Below are positions 3,739-10,170 of a DNA stretch of 40,614 bases, in pieces. Where the stretch lies: UHGV virus genome UHGV-0081829; one strand, 5' to 3'. Source of the DNA: a virus. How positions within the stretch are numbered: the first letter of the stretch is position 1; each line of letters begins with the position of its first letter. The notes under the pieces were generated by a model, which was given only the letters and a program-made list of their open reading frames with translations, ran no database searches and was not told the DNA's origin. The translations under genes and the position numbers were made by a program.

Positions 3739-4047
3739 TTACCTCGCCGTCAGTTGTTTTGATTTCCGGTAGCCTGCCGCGTAAATGGCTACGTTTGGCA
3801 GGCAAATACTTCCACTGCATTCGTCGGTATTTTGGTTACGAATGTTGCCGAGTGATATTGCTTTTTCAGAAAGGCTTAAACGCTTTCTTGGGGATTCCTG
3901 AACAGGTTCCTCACTGTCTGTGCCGAAGATAGAATCAATGATGTTGCAGATGGCATCACGCTCGATAGCCAGCTTTCTGCGCCGCTCATGACGGCGAGTT
4001 TTGGCATTTCCTGCAAATGTTGATTTTCCGTACACGATTACCGTCAT
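3739..4047 (-). CDS. N: Early antitermination protein N (P22 gene 24 type)
   Basis: Begins MTVIVYGKSTFAGNAKTRRHERRRKLAIERD with an arginine-rich motif, ends ...AAGYRKSKQLTAR, closely matching P22 gp24 as recalled; GAGGAAAA before the ATG at 4047. Confidence 0.8.
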   Translation of the reverse strand: MTVIVYGKSTFAGNAKTRRHERRRKLAIERDAICNIIDSIFGTDSEEPVQESPRKRLSLSEKAISLGNIRNQNTDECSGSICLPNVAIYAAGYRKSKQLTAR

Positions 4048-4166
4048 GATATTTTCCTCATGTGAAATGGCTTTGGTGGTGATGCGCCAGGTGCTGATCT
4101 TCTGGTTGCTGTCGTTGCAGCTGCAATTCACATCACCGCCAAACCCATCTCGTTTGGTATCTGTTT

Positions 4167-4200
4167 GCGCTTTGTCAGCGCCCCATCGAAGTTAAAGAGC
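4167..4200 (-). promoter_or_regulatory. nutL site (boxA GCTCTTTAAC, boxB hairpin GCGCT-GACAA-AGCGC)
   Basis: Minus strand reads GCTCTTTAAC, 9 nt, then GCGCTGACAAAGCGC, upstream of N in the leftward transcript. Confidence 0.6.
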
Positions 4201-4452
4201 CTGCCAATCTGTTCCGTTTGGCTTCCAGCTTCCTGCTGATGGCTAAATAGTACGATGTGTACTTTATTGAGTCAATACAAAATGTTCTAAATGTTGTTAG
4301 TTTTTTATAACATATTGTATTTTATGGATTTGTTTTTTGCAGGGGGAATTGTTTGGTATGTGAGGGATCAGAATTGCACTGTTTAGCAAGTTGTATCTAT
4401 CAATTTTTCAATAAATACAATTGGTTATTGTGTTATTAGGTGTGTGGATCGT

Positions 4453-4483
4453 GAGGAAAAGAAAACCCGGCGCTGAGGCCGGG
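4453..4483 (-). terminator. Intrinsic terminator ending the cI cargo operon
   Basis: Stem CCCGGC/GCCGGG with a 6-nt loop (4466-4483), followed on the minus strand by TTTTCTTTT, 6 nt past the stop at 4489. Confidence 0.7.
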
Positions 4484-4488
4484 TTGTA

Positions 4489-5241
4489 TTATGCTGCAAG
4501 TCTCTTAACCCAAGTCTCTCTTTTGGAGAATGGTAGAACTTGGCTTGATTCATGGAAGAGTAAGGAGAGTTGTTGCATTTGGTCACCAATTGCTTCGCTG
4601 TCTATAACAACAAATCTGTTGTTATACTCCTCACTTGAAGCTTTAAGATCAATTAGTTTCCCAAGCAATGAGTAAGCACTATTCCAGCTTCCTCCGTGTT
4701 TCACGCTTGATGTAAAAACGTATTTAGGTATGTCGGTTTTTATTGTTACAGGGACGGTAATTTGATGTCCACTCAAGCCATATACGTTTTCACGAAGAGA
4801 AAGTGCGTCTCTAAGCTCTGTGTGATATAGATAATCAATAACCATACTTTCAAACTTTTCAGCTTGAACTGGCTGATACCAGTCTAACGACAAAGTTGAT
4901 GCGAGTATACCAGCTCTAATTATGTTCGATGTAATAGCACCGACATCCTTTTCTGTTGCCCAAGCAATGATTTCTCCTCGATCATTGAGCTCTGCGCCTT
5001 CTTTAAGCAGTAATTGTCGTATCTCATCAAGTCGTTTTTTGGTAAGCGAGATCCCTCTTGCCTCCATATTCATTAAGGCATCGCATCTGTCACTAACTAA
5101 ATACCTACCATTGACTTCACGGATAAAGGCACCGACATGCTCTCCATCATCACAGTAAGTGAATGGACTGATAATTCTCAAGGTCTTGCCCATTGGATGG
5201 CATTCGAAACCTAGTTGTGAGATCACTGTTGAGCACATCAT
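4489..5241 (-). CDS. Hypothetical 250-aa protein, third gene of the cI-downstream cargo cassette
   Basis: ATG at 5241 overlaps the upstream stop (ATGATG/TGA at 5236-5241); no family recognised; AT-rich by eye. Confidence 0.5.
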   Translation of the reverse strand: MMCSTVISQLGFECHPMGKTLRIISPFTYCDDGEHVGAFIREVNGRYLVSDRCDALMNMEARGISLTKKRLDEIRQLLLKEGAELNDRGEIIAWATEKDVGAITSNIIRAGILASTLSLDWYQPVQAEKFESMVIDYLYHTELRDALSLRENVYGLSGHQITVPVTIKTDIPKYVFTSSVKHGGSWNSAYSLLGKLIDLKASSEEYNNRFVVIDSEAIGDQMQQLSLLFHESSQVLPFSKRETWVKRLAA

Positions 5242-5795
5242 ATTCCAAACCCCATTTGCCCCGACTCATCTTCAAGTGGTAAAGGTATTCTCCCAGAGTA
5301 AGTTATGTTCAGATGTTTACAGAAGTAATTCCAATACCCTACCAGGTCATCTGGGTTTATGTCATCTTCGATTGGAAACGCTATTCTATCACTATAGTAT
5401 CCAGCTTCTTCATAGTATACATGGTAGTGAGCACCGTAAATGATATCTTGGTACTTCGGATGATCGACCTTGTAACTATTCGTGTGTTTGTCAAAGTGAT
5501 AGGTATCTACCGCGAAAACCCTCTTGTTATGATAGAAAGCAATAATATTTATTTTAGGGTAAGAAATCGGGTCATCAGGTTCTGAATCCTGATCTGGTTT
5601 CCATTTCAGTTCAAACTTTAGCCCTTGTATAGGTATACAATCCTCATCCAAGGGGATGATATGAGCTTGTAGCCACATATCAGAGCGACTTGGTTTCTGT
5701 TTCCATTTAACTCCAGAAAAGTTAACTATTTTTTTACAATAAAGTACTTTATCAACTTCTATTTGGCTTGGCTGATAATCATCTATTTTTGCCAA
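5238..5795 (-). CDS. Hypothetical 185-aa protein, second gene of the cargo cassette (start uncertain: TTG at 5795 or ATG at 5678)
   Basis: Track ORF starts on TTG; first in-frame ATG is at 5678; rich in Tyr/His/Asp/Pro (..YGAHYHVYYEEAGYY..); no family recognised. Confidence 0.45.
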   Translation of the reverse strand: MAKIDDYQPSQIEVDKVLYCKKIVNFSGVKWKQKPSRSDMWLQAHIIPLDEDCIPIQGLKFELKWKPDQDSEPDDPISYPKINIIAFYHNKRVFAVDTYHFDKHTNSYKVDHPKYQDIIYGAHYHVYYEEAGYYSDRIAFPIEDDINPDDLVGYWNYFCKHLNITYSGRIPLPLEDESGQMGFGI

Positions 5796-5854
5796 TGTTT
5801 ACCGCCCTGTAAATTGTAGATAAAAGAGGTTTCATCACCCAAACGTCTCTTCAC

Positions 5855-6196
5855 TCATCCGAAGAAGCAGCAATCCGGGTCAGCACGCACAAGCTCAAGC
5901 GCATCGGTCAGCGAAAGCTCAGTACTGTACTGATGCCATTTCATATCCTTCCGCATCCAATAGATTTTCCATCTATCCAGAGAACGTATGTACTTGATTC
6001 TTGCTGATGGCAGGATGTTTGTTTCACCAGGATTGCCCTGCCACACGGGGCGCTGTTCACCGATATCTATCGTTTGGTCATTGATGCTATAAACAATATC
6101 CAGTTCATTGCGGATATGTTCAGGCGGCCTTATGCTTTCAATGAATTGGTGAACTTCTTTTTTTACTGCTTGATATTCAAGGTCAGTGAACGCCAT
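5855..6196 (-). CDS. Hypothetical 113-aa protein immediately downstream of cI (possibly DUF3024-like, unverified)
   Basis: AAGGAGG 5 nt before the ATG at 6196, only 9 nt after the cI stop; Trp-rich C-terminal half; flanked by a 17-bp direct repeat. Confidence 0.55.
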   Translation of the reverse strand: MAFTDLEYQAVKKEVHQFIESIRPPEHIRNELDIVYSINDQTIDIGEQRPVWQGNPGETNILPSARIKYIRSLDRWKIYWMRKDMKWHQYSTELSLTDALELVRADPDCCFFG

Positions 6197-6205
6197 CTAT
6201 CCTCC

Positions 6206-6865
6206 TTACCCAAACGTCTCTTCAGGCCATTGACTGGCGATAACCTTGCCTACAATGTTGCAGTTCTCATTGCATGGGATGATTGGAAACTGCGGGTTAA
6301 GTGGTTGCAAAAACACTTGCCCACTATCTTTGATCAGTTTTTTGAATGTGAATTCATCGCCACCAAGTCTAGCGATACAGAAATCACCAGGATCAACAGG
6401 TTGTTCAGGGTCAACCAAGATTAACATTCCATCAGGAAAACTTGGTTTCAATCCTGCCGGAGCTGTCATTGAGTTGCCTTCAACCTCAAGCCAGAATGCA
6501 GAATCACTGGCTTTTTTGGTTGTGCTTACCCATCTCTCCGCATCACCTTTGGTAAAGGTTCTAAGCTCAGGCGAGAACATCCCGGCCTGAACATGAGAAA
6601 AAACAGGGTACTCATATTGTTTTTTAACGGGGGCAGATGAGTATTCGCCAACAGGTGAAAATGTACCGTCGTGGTTGAACGAGACGTTATCAATACCAAG
6701 GTATTTAAACACCATACCAATCTCGTCAAGAGATGGATGACGAGATCCGCGCAACCAGTGACCAATTCCACCCTGCGTCATACCAAGCTCTTCAGCTAAC
6801 TTCTCTTGAGTTATGCCGAGTTCTTTCATTCTGGATCTAGCCAGTTCATACCATTTCATTTTCAT
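6206..6865 (-). CDS. cI: CI-type repressor (XRE HTH + S24 LexA-like peptidase domain)
   Basis: [26 protein letters not shown]; C-terminal GNSM and FKKL Ser/Lys dyad context; C-terminal domain resembles P22 C2; start at 6865 or 6859 (MKMKWYEL, second ATG has better AAGGA spacing). Confidence 0.85.
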
Positions 6866-6976
6866 ATCCTTATTATTACGCTCTGTACTAAAATCATCCA
6901 TGCACAAGATGTATTTTTTGTTTGCATTCCAAAAGTACATATCGTATTATTGTTTCATGGTTACTATGGAGGGCAT
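6866..6976. promoter_or_regulatory. OR/pR/pRM divergent control region between cI and cro
   Basis: 110-bp AT-rich spacer between divergent genes; GTACT (6885-6889) and AGTAC (6935-6939) half-site-like motifs; candidate pR at 6922-6950. Confidence 0.5.
6922..6950 (+). promoter_or_regulatory. Candidate pR promoter (-35 TTGCAT, 17-bp spacer, -10 TATTAT)
   Basis: TTGCAT at 6922-6927 and TATTAT at 6945-6950, about 27 nt upstream of the cro ATG; the AGTAC motif lies in the spacer. Confidence 0.45.
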
Positions 6977-7301: not shown

Positions 7302-7601
7302 ATGGAACAAACAAGTTACAGCAAACTATCACAGCGTGACGTTGATCGCGCAGAAACAGATTTACTCATCAACCTGTCAACGCTTACCCAGCGCGGTCTG
7401 GCAAAGATGATTGGCTGTCATGAATCAAAGATAAGCAGAACGGACTGGAGATTTATTGCTTCGGTCTTGTGTGCTTTTGGAATGGCATCAGACATTAGCC
7501 CGATTAGCAGGGCTTTTAAGTATGCGCTTGATGGACTCACCAATAAAAAACGCCCGGTGTGCAAGACCGAGCGTTCTGAACAAATCCAGATGGATTTTTA
7601 A
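7302..7601 (+). CDS. cII: CII transcriptional activator
   Basis: 99 aa; C-terminus ...LTNKKRPVCKTERSEQIQMDF matches lambda CII (...LTNKKRPAATERSEQIQMEF) as recalled. Confidence 0.85.
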   Translation: MEQTSYSKLSQRDVDRAETDLLINLSTLTQRGLAKMIGCHESKISRTDWRFIASVLCAFGMASDISPISRAFKYALDGLTNKKRPVCKTERSEQIQMDF

Positions 7602-7622
7602 CTGCTTTCTATGGAGTTAATT

Positions 7623-8423
7623 ATGGCAAAAAAACCTACACCAGACCAGGTAAAAAAGATTCGTTCCGGCATTACCAAGAAAATACGGTTTGAGGTTTTC
7701 AAGCGCGATGGCTTCAAATGCCAGTACTGTGGGAGTTCTGCGCCAGACGTCATCCTTCATGTCGACCATATCAACCCAGTTAGCAAGGGTGGCGATAACG
7801 ACATGATGAACCTTATTACTTCTTGCGATAGTTGTAATGGCGGGAAAAGCGACAAACTGCTCAGCGATAACTCAATAATGGAAAAGCAAAGGCAGCAACT
7901 CCAGGAACTTAATACCAAGCGAGAGCAACTGGAGATGATGATCAAGTGGCGAGATGGTCTTAAGAGCCTGAAAGACGATGTTGTTGATATTGTCGCTACC
8001 AAAATTGACGACTGCATTGCACCATTTACTGTTAATGACAATGGGCGAAAATCTATCAAGAGATGGCTTCGAATATATAAGCTTGAAGAAATCCTCGATG
8101 CGATTGAGATTGCCGCAGACAAAAAACTCACCCAAGAAATAACCCATGAGCTTACTGGTGAATTCTTTGAGTACATCCCTCGCATAGCAGCGACAAAAAG
8201 AAAACCGCCAAAAGAACAAAGGATTCTATACATCAGAGGAATTCTTAAAAACCGCATATATATCAATCAAAACCATGTAATGAGTTATCTCAAGGCATGG
8301 CTTTCATACGACTTAGATCTCGATGAACTTACTGAGTTTGCGAAAACAGTACCTAACTGGACAACGTTCAAGGAGTGGGTATCTGAACGCATTCGTGAAG
8401 CTCAGGAAGAACTCCCGTACTAA
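7623..8423 (+). CDS. HNH endonuclease domain protein
   Basis: HNH signature CQYCG...HVDHINPVSKGGDNDMMNLITSCDSCN in the N-terminal third; ATG at 7623 with GGAG 6 nt upstream; track ORF 7611..8423. Confidence 0.65.
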   Translation: MAKKPTPDQVKKIRSGITKKIRFEVFKRDGFKCQYCGSSAPDVILHVDHINPVSKGGDNDMMNLITSCDSCNGGKSDKLLSDNSIMEKQRQQLQELNTKREQLEMMIKWRDGLKSLKDDVVDIVATKIDDCIAPFTVNDNGRKSIKRWLRIYKLEEILDAIEIAADKKLTQEITHELTGEFFEYIPRIAATKRKPPKEQRILYIRGILKNRIYINQNHVMSYLKAWLSYDLDLDELTEFAKTVPNWTTFKEWVSERIREAQEELPY

Positions 8424-8434
8424 AGGTGGACAAA

Positions 8435-9322
8435 ATGGCACGTTCAAGAAATATCAAACCAGGCTTTTTCACCAATGATGAATTAGCTGAGTGTTCTCCA
8501 TATGCCCGTCTCCTTTTTGCCGGGTTATGGACTATTGCTGACAAAGAAGGGCGGTTGGATGATCGCCCAAAGAAAATTAAAGCAATGGTACTGCCTTTCG
8601 ATGATGTGGACTGCAATGATCTGCTTCAGCAGCTTCATAGTCACAAATTCATCAACCGATATCAGGTAAATGGCGGCTCATATATCCAAATCAATAACTG
8701 GAAAAAGCACCAGAACCCTCACTGCAAAGAAGCAGCCAGTGAGATACCAGAACCAGTAGAGAACAATAACAGCACCATGCAAGTACAGTGCAAGGACGAT
8801 AAAGAGGAAGAGAAGGAGGATGCCGAATCACTACAAGTCATTGAAAACAATGGAGTACCAGAAAAGCACCATGCAAGTACAGTGCAAGAACCAGTAGAGA
8901 ACAGTTTAAATCCTGCTGATTCCCTTAACCTGATTCCTGATTCCCTTAACCTGATTCCTGATTCCCTTTCTAACACCCAAGCCGCTGACGCGACTTGTGA
9001 AGGGGGTGGGGCTGATGTCCATAAAATTTCAAGTCGCTATGCATTCGAAGGAAATATCGTTCGGTTAAACCACAAGGACTACGAAGCATGGAAGCGCCTG
9101 TATCCGAATATTGACCTGAATTACGAACTGGAAAGGCTGGATATCGAATTTAGCCATGAGAAGCCAAAGAACTGGTTTATCACTGCCAGCCAGAAACTCA
9201 GCTACCAGAACAAGCAGGCGTTATCCAGACCGGTACGCAAGGTTGCTAATGGACTTAAGGCTGAAAACTTTGCCACCAAAGATTACGGACAAACTGAAAT
9301 GCCTTCATGGGCGCAGGAGTGA
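8435..9322 (+). CDS. Replication initiator / replisome organizer (O-like), carries the iterons
   Basis: ATG at 8435 (MARSRNIKPGFF...) with GGTGG 5 nt upstream; sits in the lambda O position; internal direct repeats. Confidence 0.7.
   Translation: MARSRNIKPGFFTNDELAECSPYARLLFAGLWTIADKEGRLDDRPKKIKAMVLPFDDVDCNDLLQQLHSHKFINRYQVNGGSYIQINNWKKHQNPHCKEAASEIPEPVENNNSTMQVQCKDDKEEEKEDAESLQVIENNGVPEKHHASTVQEPVENSLNPADSLNLIPDSLNLIPDSLSNTQAADATCEGGGADVHKISSRYAFEGNIVRLNHKDYEAWKRLYPNIDLNYELERLDIEFSHEKPKNWFITASQKLSYQNKQALSRPVRKVANGLKAENFATKDYGQTEMPSWAQE
8750..8970 (+). repeat. Iteron-like direct repeats (candidate replication origin) inside the replication gene
   Basis: 24-bp repeat AGCACCATGCAAGTACAGTGCAAG at 8771-8794 and 8865-8888; 16-bp GAACCAGTAGAGAACA at 8750-8765 and 8888-8903; TGATTCC(CTTAACC) repeated five times at 8917-8970. 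Confidence 0.6.
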
Positions 9323-9324
9323 AC

Positions 9325-10170
9325 ATGACGCTGGATGAAAAGATCTCCCAACTGGAGAAAAAACTTGCAGAATTGAGTTCTCCGCCAATTGCTATCGAGC
9401 ATACAGCTGTAGAAATTGGCACTGGCATCTGTGAAAAACATGGTGAGTTTGAGCAGCGTAACCGTTACTCTACTGGGCCAATTAAGTTTGCCTCAAGACC
9501 TAGCGAATGCCCGGAATGCATGAGAGATGAGCTTATTCGGCTACAGGCAGAGAAGATTAAAATCGACGAGGAATCACGTAAGCGCAATGTCGAGTTTCTG
9601 TTGAATAATCTTGATATTCCTGAACGATTCAAGGGTTGCACACTACAGAACTACGAGCCAGTCAACGACGATGCAAAGAGAGTGCTCAGGGTGTGTCAGG
9701 CATACGCCAGCAAATGGCCTGAGAGGTTACAGAAAGGCGGTGGGCTGGTTATGTGTGGAAAGCCTGGTACTGGAAAGAATCATCTTGCACTGGCTATCGC
9801 CCGGCACGCAATTACGGAACATCAAAGCTCAGCTATTTTCACAACGGCGCTGAAAATTGCCAGAGAATATAAATCAACATGGTCGAAAAACTCCACCCGC
9901 ACAGAGGATGAAGTGATCCGACAGTTCACTAAACCTGACCTGCTAATTATCGATGAGGTTGGTGTGCAGTTTGGAAGCGAGGCGGAAAAGATGATCATGT
10001 TCGAAATCATCAACACCCGCTACGAGCGCATGAAGCCAACAATCCTGATTAGCAACCAGAGCAAAGATGAACTGTCTGCATTCATTGGTGAGCGTGTTAT
10101 TGACAGGATGAATGATGGCGGCGGGTGCACTCTTGCGTTTACATGGGATAGTTACAGGAGCAGATCGTGA
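9325..10170 (+). CDS. DnaC-like helicase loader (IstB/DnaC-type AAA+ ATPase)
   Basis: Walker A GKPGTGKNHLALAIA, Walker B LLIIDEVG; ATG at 9325 with AGGAG 5 nt upstream. Confidence 0.8.
   Translation: MTLDEKISQLEKKLAELSSPPIAIEHTAVEIGTGICEKHGEFEQRNRYSTGPIKFASRPSECPECMRDELIRLQAEKIKIDEESRKRNVEFLLNNLDIPERFKGCTLQNYEPVNDDAKRVLRVCQAYASKWPERLQKGGGLVMCGKPGTGKNHLALAIARHAITEHQSSAIFTTALKIAREYKSTWSKNSTRTEDEVIRQFTKPDLLIIDEVGVQFGSEAEKMIMFEIINTRYERMKPTILISNQSKDELSAFIGERVIDRMNDGGGCTLAFTWDSYRSRS

Follow-up and report, generated by a model that had tools for sequence, protein, structure and literature searches.

The viral genome UHGV-0081829 (40,614 nt, one strand, hereafter called the window) carries, directly after cII, a gene that encodes a 266-amino acid (aa) protein with an HNH nuclease domain. 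It occupies the slot of the lambda O gene, as the initial annotation had proposed: a Phage_CII gene lies upstream, and the downstream gene matches PHROG initiators (Table 1). The family to which this protein belongs is fixed ahead of the initiator in phages of many phyla, whichever initiator family is present, and it is more conserved than the initiator. We tentatively assign the protein to the phage replication module, as an accessory nuclease and probably a nickase.

The open reading frame (ORF) spans 7611..8423 (+), and translation from the ATG at 7623 yields 266 aa. This start was preferred to 7611 because the GGAG spacing, the N-termini of homologues and the coding sequences (CDS) of the Escherichia phages Dewey and Louie agree. 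The protein is 100% identical to those of Dewey and Louie, whose CDS are annotated as 'HNH endonuclease', and to the product of an unannotated stretch in the Stx1a phage 121427. It is a member, without any difference, of the family represented by PHROG 16986 and by the NCBI 'HNH endonuclease' of Dewey, Louie, JBD44 and their relatives. PHROGs lists the function of this family as unknown, and its name refers to the domain only. That the gene is an annotated member of a known family is thus already on record; newly recognised are the conserved pairing of nuclease and initiator and a C-terminal domain with no known relative, neither of which was found in the searchable literature.

The HNH motif described in the initial annotation was confirmed. 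It consists of C33-Q-Y-C36, H46-V-D48-H49, N63 and C68-D-S-C71-N72, and the Pfam HNH model (PF01844) matches aa 33-77 with an E of 1e-13 (51.6 bits versus a cutoff of 21.4), far beyond chance. The zinc cysteines C33, C36, C68 and C71, together with D48, H49, N63 and N72, are invariant in 50/50 aligned relatives (45-86% identity). The protein shows the beta-beta-alpha-metal fold of HNH / His-Me finger nucleases. Its HNH domain is closest to the Cas9/IscB/Gme-nickase type and has a fold like that of nicking-type HNH domains. The phrog_16986 profile matches over its full length (aa 11-259 versus profile positions 1-248 of 248, E 1.1e-151). Judged from its residues, the protein is apparently a DNA-cutting enzyme with intact catalytic residues. 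It resembles the small nicking HNH endonucleases (Gme HNH, 4h9d; phage GVE2 HNH, 5h0o) and the HNH domains of Cas9 and IscB. Unlike these enzymes, it has no RuvC or guide-RNA machinery and bears an extra 180-aa segment made of a helix and a domain. The IscB/Cas9 family model gave 60.4 bits versus a cutoff of 175, with only the HNH region matched. An Rfam search found no structured RNA in or near the gene, and a promoter scan found no promoter within it. The PADLOC matches to PtuB, ZorE and Cap5 covered the HNH core only, with E no better than 9e-8; neither PtuB of Septu nor ZorE of Zorya was matched over its full length, and the neighbours of the gene are cII and the initiator. No homing DNA-binding module (NUMOD, IENR1, AP2 or helix-turn-helix) was recovered by Pfam in the protein or in 46 relatives.

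The AlphaFold2 model (mean pLDDT 88) predicts three parts, namely the HNH domain, a single long helix and a seven-helix bundle. Also invariant in the 50 relatives are R100, Q102 and W109, which follow the HNH domain, and Y203, R211 and W246, close to the C-terminus. When the bundle (aa 139-263) was modelled alone, pLDDT reached 96.2 and pTM 0.80, so that the C-terminal domain is predicted to be confidently folded; no known relative of it appeared in the searches made. Pfam, NCBIfam and PADLOC matched only the HNH domain, PHROGs gave only the family's own model, and phmmer and profile searches against the PDB again matched only the HNH domain. A Foldseek search against BFVD had a best E of 0.067, which is not significant. 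A comparison with 69 partner initiators by hmmsearch and hhalign gave a best probability of 13.6%, also not significant. A diverged DnaD-like domain, or a match to the C-terminus of the partner, was considered and, these comparisons being non-significant, is kept as a lead only. The PDB profile search gave no DnaD match, and the weak Pfam DnaB_2 match (PF07261, E 0.1, in 2/46 members) is below significance. The motif Y203-I-R-G-I-L-K-N-R211 resembles the YxxxIxxxW of DnaD domains. The same hmmsearch and hhalign comparisons detected no homology between the window protein and lambda O-like or organizer initiators. The possibility that the protein is the N-terminal part of a two-part initiator was therefore abandoned, no such initiator being described in the searchable literature.

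Full-length relatives with 36-52% identity were found in JBD44-like Pseudomonas phages, Oenococcus phage Krappator27, Komagataeibacter phages phiKX1 and phiKX2 and a group of Vibrio phages, while a relative in Synechococcus phages aligns to query residues 14-164 only. The JBD44-like homologue (52% identity) has the same architecture and the same place upstream of an initiator. In every annotated relative examined, the next gene, on the same strand and immediately downstream, mostly with an overlap, encodes ~260-360 aa, and PHROGs or Pfam classifies it as a replication initiator, a replisome organizer, a DnaD-like protein or a primosomal (DUF1376) protein. According to BLASTP, these partners are mostly dissimilar to the window initiator; the Pseudomonas partner alone shares its N-terminal domain (43% identity over 161 aa). 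In two actinophages, Mycobacterium phage Dante and Propionibacterium phage G4, shorter relatives that match the HNH domain and the beginning of the helix are followed by genes annotated for replication initiation; in Gordonia phage Jalammah the gene after the shorter relative is annotated as hypothetical only. Carriage by plasmids was considered and rejected, since full-length relatives were found only in phage-like records of 29-39 kb.

The same arrangement was followed in the best 80 loci from IMG/VR, where an abutting ORF was defined as one of ~130-410 aa (mostly ~200-400) starting between -80 and +200 nt from the HNH stop. Such an ORF is present in 64/80 loci, and most of the others are cut by contig ends. 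A single BLAST single-linkage cluster gathers 53 sequences, including the window initiator. Most of the top 25 PHROG families of these 64 ORFs are annotated as replication-initiation, organizer, DnaD-like or primosomal proteins; the remaining ones are unnamed or mislabelled, yet they match the window initiator or its relatives. Among ten outlier partners, eight are initiator-like; the ninth is a terminase next to a short HNH protein of a different class, and the tenth is of unknown kind. The short relative in locus L065 adjoins a terminase. Altogether, partners are initiator-like in at least 61 of the 64 evaluable viral contigs, and the pairing rule is firmly established for the clades nearer the window.

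A wider scan of GTDB species genomes recovered full-length relatives with 38-57% identity in more than 15 phyla, including Proteobacteria, Planctomycetota, Acidobacteriota, Bacteroidota, Chloroflexota, Cyanobacteria and Patescibacteria. The C-terminal domain is likewise 38-57% identical across phyla. HNH similarity and partner similarity correlate across 62 loci (Spearman 0.26), yet where two HNH proteins are ~54% identical, no similarity is often detected between their partners. As such nucleases stand beside unrelated initiators, it is the position that is conserved and not the sequence of the partner; the nuclease is kept, whereas the initiator can be replaced. With partners that are unrelated to one another, a specific contact with the variable domains of the initiator is unlikely. 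An invariable partner would more probably be found in DNA or a DNA structure, in a conserved replisome protein of the host, or in some feature that all these modules share.

The inheritance of the gene was then considered in E. coli. The HNH gene is present in 18/5,426 complete genomes (22 records), and the full-length initiator allele in the same number (18/5,426, 22 records). No initiator allele lacking the HNH gene was seen among these genomes, nor any presence/absence polymorphism between near-identical flanks. In many Stx phages the match to the window covers cI, cro and cII and ends at ~7557-7602, whereas in Dewey, Louie and the Stx1a phage 121427 it extends over the HNH gene, initiator and loader. 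This mosaic joint at the cII stop indicates that the HNH gene travels as the first gene of an exchangeable replication module. Against three relatives, where dS could be estimated, dN/dS was 0.05-0.06 for the HNH gene versus 0.12-0.18 for the initiator, and the constraint extends to each of the three regions of the protein. Purifying selection on the HNH gene is thus strong, above that on the initiator.

The gene is nevertheless optional, as phages with related initiators lack it. In the presence/absence comparison suggested in the initial annotation, the gene is absent beside initiators 66-80% identical to that of the window and was not seen to be missing beside the same E. coli allele. In HK639 (L008, initiator 80% identical), the slot (2094-2498) holds a 134-aa protein of unknown function (phrog_30464). 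In Hafnia phage yong1 (L009, initiator 66% identical), it holds (1953-2489) a 178-aa PHROG 3007 protein labelled RusA-like or clamp-like. These two products, HK639 gp53 and yong1 gp27, were examined as possible relatives and are unrelated to the HNH protein. In Bordetella IFTN4 (L010), the slot (2477-2998) contains a 173-aa protein with a different HNH-like match (phrog_131), and in RSK1, Acinetobacter phage NL and F10 it contains nothing comparable. The cII-initiator slot may be one where accessory genes acting on DNA tend to collect. The IFTN4 'HNH endonuclease', considered as a true HNH-initiator fusion, lacks an HNH domain and is an initiator; the gene upstream of it encodes the different HNH-like protein.

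A search with the C-terminal domain only gave 299 cluster representatives at E <=0.001, many of the short entries being fragments that start inside the HNH domain or the helix. In P0216, an XRE helix-turn-helix takes the place of the HNH domain ahead of the C-terminal domain. P0246 combines an XRE helix-turn-helix and a degenerate HNH (DH to EY) with the C-terminal domain, and P0123 and P0154 apparently consist of the C-terminal domain alone. Long forms of 430-570 aa carry extra C-terminal regions with no PHROG match. Long forms of ~400 aa were considered as initiator fusions and rejected, their extensions being unannotated and not initiator, and hhalign gave no support for an initiator-like N-terminus in P0158. 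In locus L067 (IMG/VR UViG_3300048606_000106, 3794-6328), two nuclease genes precede a 337-aa initiator. The first is a member of the family; in the second, an ORF of 178 aa, an initiator-type N-domain (phrog_2447) is fused to another HNH domain. The PHROG 5718 profile also matches both the N-domain of the window initiator and HNH. HNH domains therefore recur in other forms in the slot ahead of the initiator.

Taken together, the invariant catalytic residues, the fixed position at the head of the operon, the co-inheritance, the constraint and the wide distribution suggest that the function of the protein is tied to the replication module, and the same facts argue against a decaying selfish element. 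The initial annotation had offered a homing, a replication-associated nickase or an exclusion function; synteny, co-occurrence in E. coli and selection favour the replication-associated one, and homing is weakened. Our preferred explanation, held tentatively and at somewhat below even chances, is an accessory nuclease, probably a nickase. The protein would be expressed from the early-right operon, where its gene heads a block formed by HNH, initiator and helicase loader, and its single HNH active site would be of the type that cuts one strand per monomer. It would nick or cleave phage DNA at or near the origin, or early replication intermediates, with the long helix and the C-terminal domain positioning or regulating the nuclease at the replication complex. 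Such a nick could convert theta (circle-to-circle) replication into rolling-circle or recombination-dependent replication, a mode that would yield the concatemers needed for packaging. The nuclease activity, its DNA target, the contact with the replication machinery and the effect on the replication mode are what we infer from these data. In a broader form, which we consider doubtful, the family would be a previously unrecognised pan-bacterial nuclease subunit of initiation modules, recruited via the C-terminal domain, whose nick at or near the origin switches theta replication to the rolling-circle or recombination-dependent mode.

Several observations weigh against a replication role. The gene is dispensable for this type of initiator, since HK639, Hafnia phage yong1, RSK1, Acinetobacter phage NL and F10 do without it. 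In the GTDB scan, an abutting ORF of at least 90 aa was present in 52/80 loci and was initiator-like in just 32/80. This low count may reflect the limited reference set; in ~48/80 loci the class of the partner was not recognised by phmmer, hhalign and one tblastn search. The HNH protein is more conserved than its partners, which speaks against a specific contact between it and the initiator protein, and the core function of the family may be something other than nuclease activity, as the C-terminal domain also occurs without an active HNH. Profile and fold searches detected no homology between this domain and any replication protein, and no functional study of the family was found in the searchable full-text literature.

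The explanations that compete with an accessory nicking nuclease were ranked below it, a module-level homing endonuclease or an early conflict nuclease coming next and a role centred on the C-terminal domain last. The protein could be a selfish endonuclease that drives its own module by cutting lambdoid genomes that carry another replication module, at or near the cII/initiator junction or the origin. Recombinational repair of the cut co-infecting or resident genome would then bring in the HNH gene along with the initiator, origin and loader linked to it, and the place beside the initiator would reflect linkage to what the nuclease spreads and not a role in replication. Its optional occurrence among phages with related initiators, its rarity in E. 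coli (18/5,426 genomes), its position exactly on a mosaic boundary and its transfer en bloc with the initiator are all consistent with this proposal. There is also precedent in the T-even phages, whose free-standing HNH homing genes are lodged between conserved genes and encode enzymes that cleave the adjacent gene in relatives without the endonuclease. However, only HNH families were matched in Pfam and no homing DNA-binding module was found, and the 38-57% identity of the C-terminal domain across phyla, while the putative neighbouring targets are unrelated, is hard to square with sequence specificity. Moreover, dN/dS is very low in all domains, the same initiator allele was not found both with and without the gene, and variants with no active HNH keep the C-terminal domain. 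The classical homing reading is thereby weakened, and we consider the module-spreading form of it rather unlikely.

We give about the same low credence to a conflict nuclease, expressed early and attacking non-self DNA (host chromosome, phages, satellites or plasmids), for instance at origins or replication intermediates, its own phage DNA being spared through sequence, modification or timing. Early expression, judged from the position of the gene, and the domain-level HNH matches to the defence nucleases PtuB, ZorE and Cap5 would fit such a role, as would the fusion of an initiator-type DNA-binding domain to HNH in L067. Origin-directed and replication-blocking nucleases are reported to operate in phage-satellite conflicts, examples being ICP1 Odn (PMC8263062) and PLE NixI (PMC9410903). 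The PADLOC matches, though, are limited to the HNH core and no defence-system partner gene is adjacent. A gene of this kind would be expected at the variable positions of morons, yet it is fixed ahead of the initiator across phyla; nothing between cII and the initiator looks like a gene for immunity or for an inhibitor, and the strong conservation of the HNH gene is unlike that of fast-evolving conflict genes. Least probable, and in our opinion improbable, is an adapter or regulator in which the helix and the C-terminal domain attach to DNA or to a component of replication (for instance through a very diverged DnaD-like domain), HNH being an exchangeable DNA-binding head with cleavage secondary or absent. 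The association of the C-terminal domain with XRE (P0216) or with a degenerate HNH (P0246), its apparent occurrence alone (P0123, P0154) and the likeness of Y203-I-R-G-I-L-K-N-R211 to the DnaD motif point in this direction. Conversely, the catalytic and zinc residues of the main family are all invariant, which argues for selection on catalysis; the DnaD-like signals are all non-significant (hhalign at most 13.6%, PDB profile search without a DnaD match), and some of the short entries with only the C-terminal domain are clearly fragments.

Comparison with other phage nucleases places the protein apart from the better known groups. Phage HNH genes are usually dismissed as selfish homing elements or packaging helpers. 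Like the free-standing homing enzymes (T4 Mob family, I-HmuI), the window protein has an HNH fold, lies between conserved genes at a mosaic boundary and is optional; unlike them, it gave no match to NUMOD, IENR1 or another homing DNA-binding module, its C-terminal domain is conserved across phyla beside unrelated neighbours and it is co-inherited with its neighbour in E. coli. P2 A and phiX174 gpA are HUH-family nucleases that nick an origin near their own gene to start or redirect replication, and a nick close to the gene is the functional analogy that could be proposed here. These enzymes differ from the window protein in that they have the HUH fold, are themselves the initiator and are essential, while the HNH protein is separate from the O-like initiator and the loader and is optional. 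The terminase-associated HNH proteins of the HK97 gp74 type would offer a parallel, as phage HNH genes kept beside the genes of a DNA-processing machine and encoding an accessory subunit. These proteins of cos phages reportedly measure ~100-170 aa, are encoded beside the terminase and portal genes and stimulate cos cleavage (Kala et al. 2014; Quiles-Puchalt et al. 2014). The window protein is larger (266 aa) and is encoded in the early replication operon, ~30 kb in gene order from the packaging genes; its gene adjoins cII and the initiator and not terminase or portal genes. Odn and NixI are reported to be tied to origins or to the rolling-circle switch, and the fusion in L067 echoes the design of Odn; they have other nuclease folds and another domain make-up, and the window protein has no initiator-type DNA-binding domain.

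The literature found mentions the family only in passing. A homologue was listed merely as an HNH endonuclease beside a replisome organizer in the paper on the Oenococcus phage Krappator (PMC12403621), a survey of lambdoid recombination modules mentions other HNH genes only (PMC12315714), and the genome announcement of Huey, Dewey and Louie assigned no function (PMC12243541). Dewey and Louie grow on E. coli K-12 displaying the O16 O-antigen (PMC12243541). With their identical protein they are, together with the JBD44-like phages of Pseudomonas aeruginosa, readily obtained test systems.

If the replication role is true, a nuclease step would be added to the textbook scheme of initiator, loader and helicase. 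To our knowledge, the trigger of the change from theta to rolling-circle replication is still unexplained for lambda-like phages; this transition could become directly testable, and an origin-nicking subunit would provide a defined and genetically tractable trigger for the switch. If the protein is instead a module homing or exclusion nuclease, it would help to explain the exchange of whole replication modules among lambdoid phages. Either way, the C-terminal domain merits a name and a structure.

Table 1. Features of the replication module and neighbouring genes in the window.
Feature	Position	Strand	Evidence and remarks
HNH gene (PHROG 16986 family, 266-aa product)	7623..8423	+	ORF, Pfam HNH, phrog_16986, CDS identity to Dewey/Louie
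HNH (beta-beta-alpha-metal) nuclease domain, aa ~19-80	7677..7862	+	4-Cys zinc site, D48/H49/N63/N72
Single 49-residue helix, aa 83-131	7869..8015	+	AlphaFold2 (predicted); conserved R100, Q102, L103, M105, M106, W109, R110
Family-specific seven-helix C-terminal domain (predicted), aa 139-263	8037..8411	+	Invariant Y203, R211, W246
GGAG Shine-Dalgarno sequence	7613..7616	+	6 nt before ATG 7623, read from sequence
Replication initiator (O-like), conserved downstream partner	8435..9322	+	phrog_17247 E 9e-190; phrog_16167 'replication initiation protein' E 1.5e-49
Shine-Dalgarno sequence of the initiator, AAGGTGG	8424-8430	+	Read from sequence
Iteron-like direct repeats within the initiator gene	8749..8968	.	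Repeat families D1-D4
DnaC-like helicase loader, third gene of the module	9307..10170	+	Pfam IstB_IS21 E 2e-18; phrog_50 E 3e-86
cII gene	7302..7601	+	Pfam Phage_CII E 6e-35; stop is the left mosaic boundary of the replication module
cI	6206-6940	-	Neighbour; followed by cro-like ORF, cII, HNH gene, initiator and loader

By its position in the early-right operon, the HNH gene belongs to the early-expressed genes. It is close-packed with the initiator gene, the gap between the HNH stop and the initiator ATG being 11 nt. Because this gap holds the initiator's own Shine-Dalgarno sequence, the translational coupling that had been claimed for the two genes is plausible only. The loader also matches the NCBIfam DnaC model with an E of 3e-45, which is under the cutoff of that model. 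The linker region of the initiator gene contains two copies of AGAACCAGTAGAGAACA, two copies of a 24-nt hairpin-containing unit and five copies of CTGATTCC. By analogy with lambda, whose ori lies inside gene O, these repeats are probably the replication origin; the nuclease would then be encoded a few hundred bases from the origin.

On the minus strand, a terminator-like hairpin with a T-run (7577 to 7547, ...CCATCTGGATTTGTTCAGAACGCTCGG...GGGCGTTTTTTATT) lies inside the 3' end of cII. Its sequence resembles the antisense oop RNA of lambda. For an oop-like RNA of ~75 nt, start and promoter would lie over the ribosome-binding site and the initial codons of the HNH gene; 7620-7625 gives CATAAT as its reverse complement. 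Neither Rfam nor the promoter scan gave a match for such an RNA at 7540-7625 (-).

Beyond the replication module, window 10200-35000 corresponds to a mosaic lambdoid prophage, of which the best phage record covers at most 18% with ~90% identity. As no phage record covers more than this, only the replication module is common with Dewey and Louie and not the whole phage. Downstream of cI, at the position of lambda rexAB (4489-6196, -), three genes encode a DUF3024 protein (E 2e-31), a protein of 185 aa that matches DUF6978 weakly, and a DUF1828 protein. Most of this stretch (~4400-5850) is common to several Stx-converting and ev-series phages at 99% identity, and these three genes may form a moron or defence cassette expressed from the prophage.

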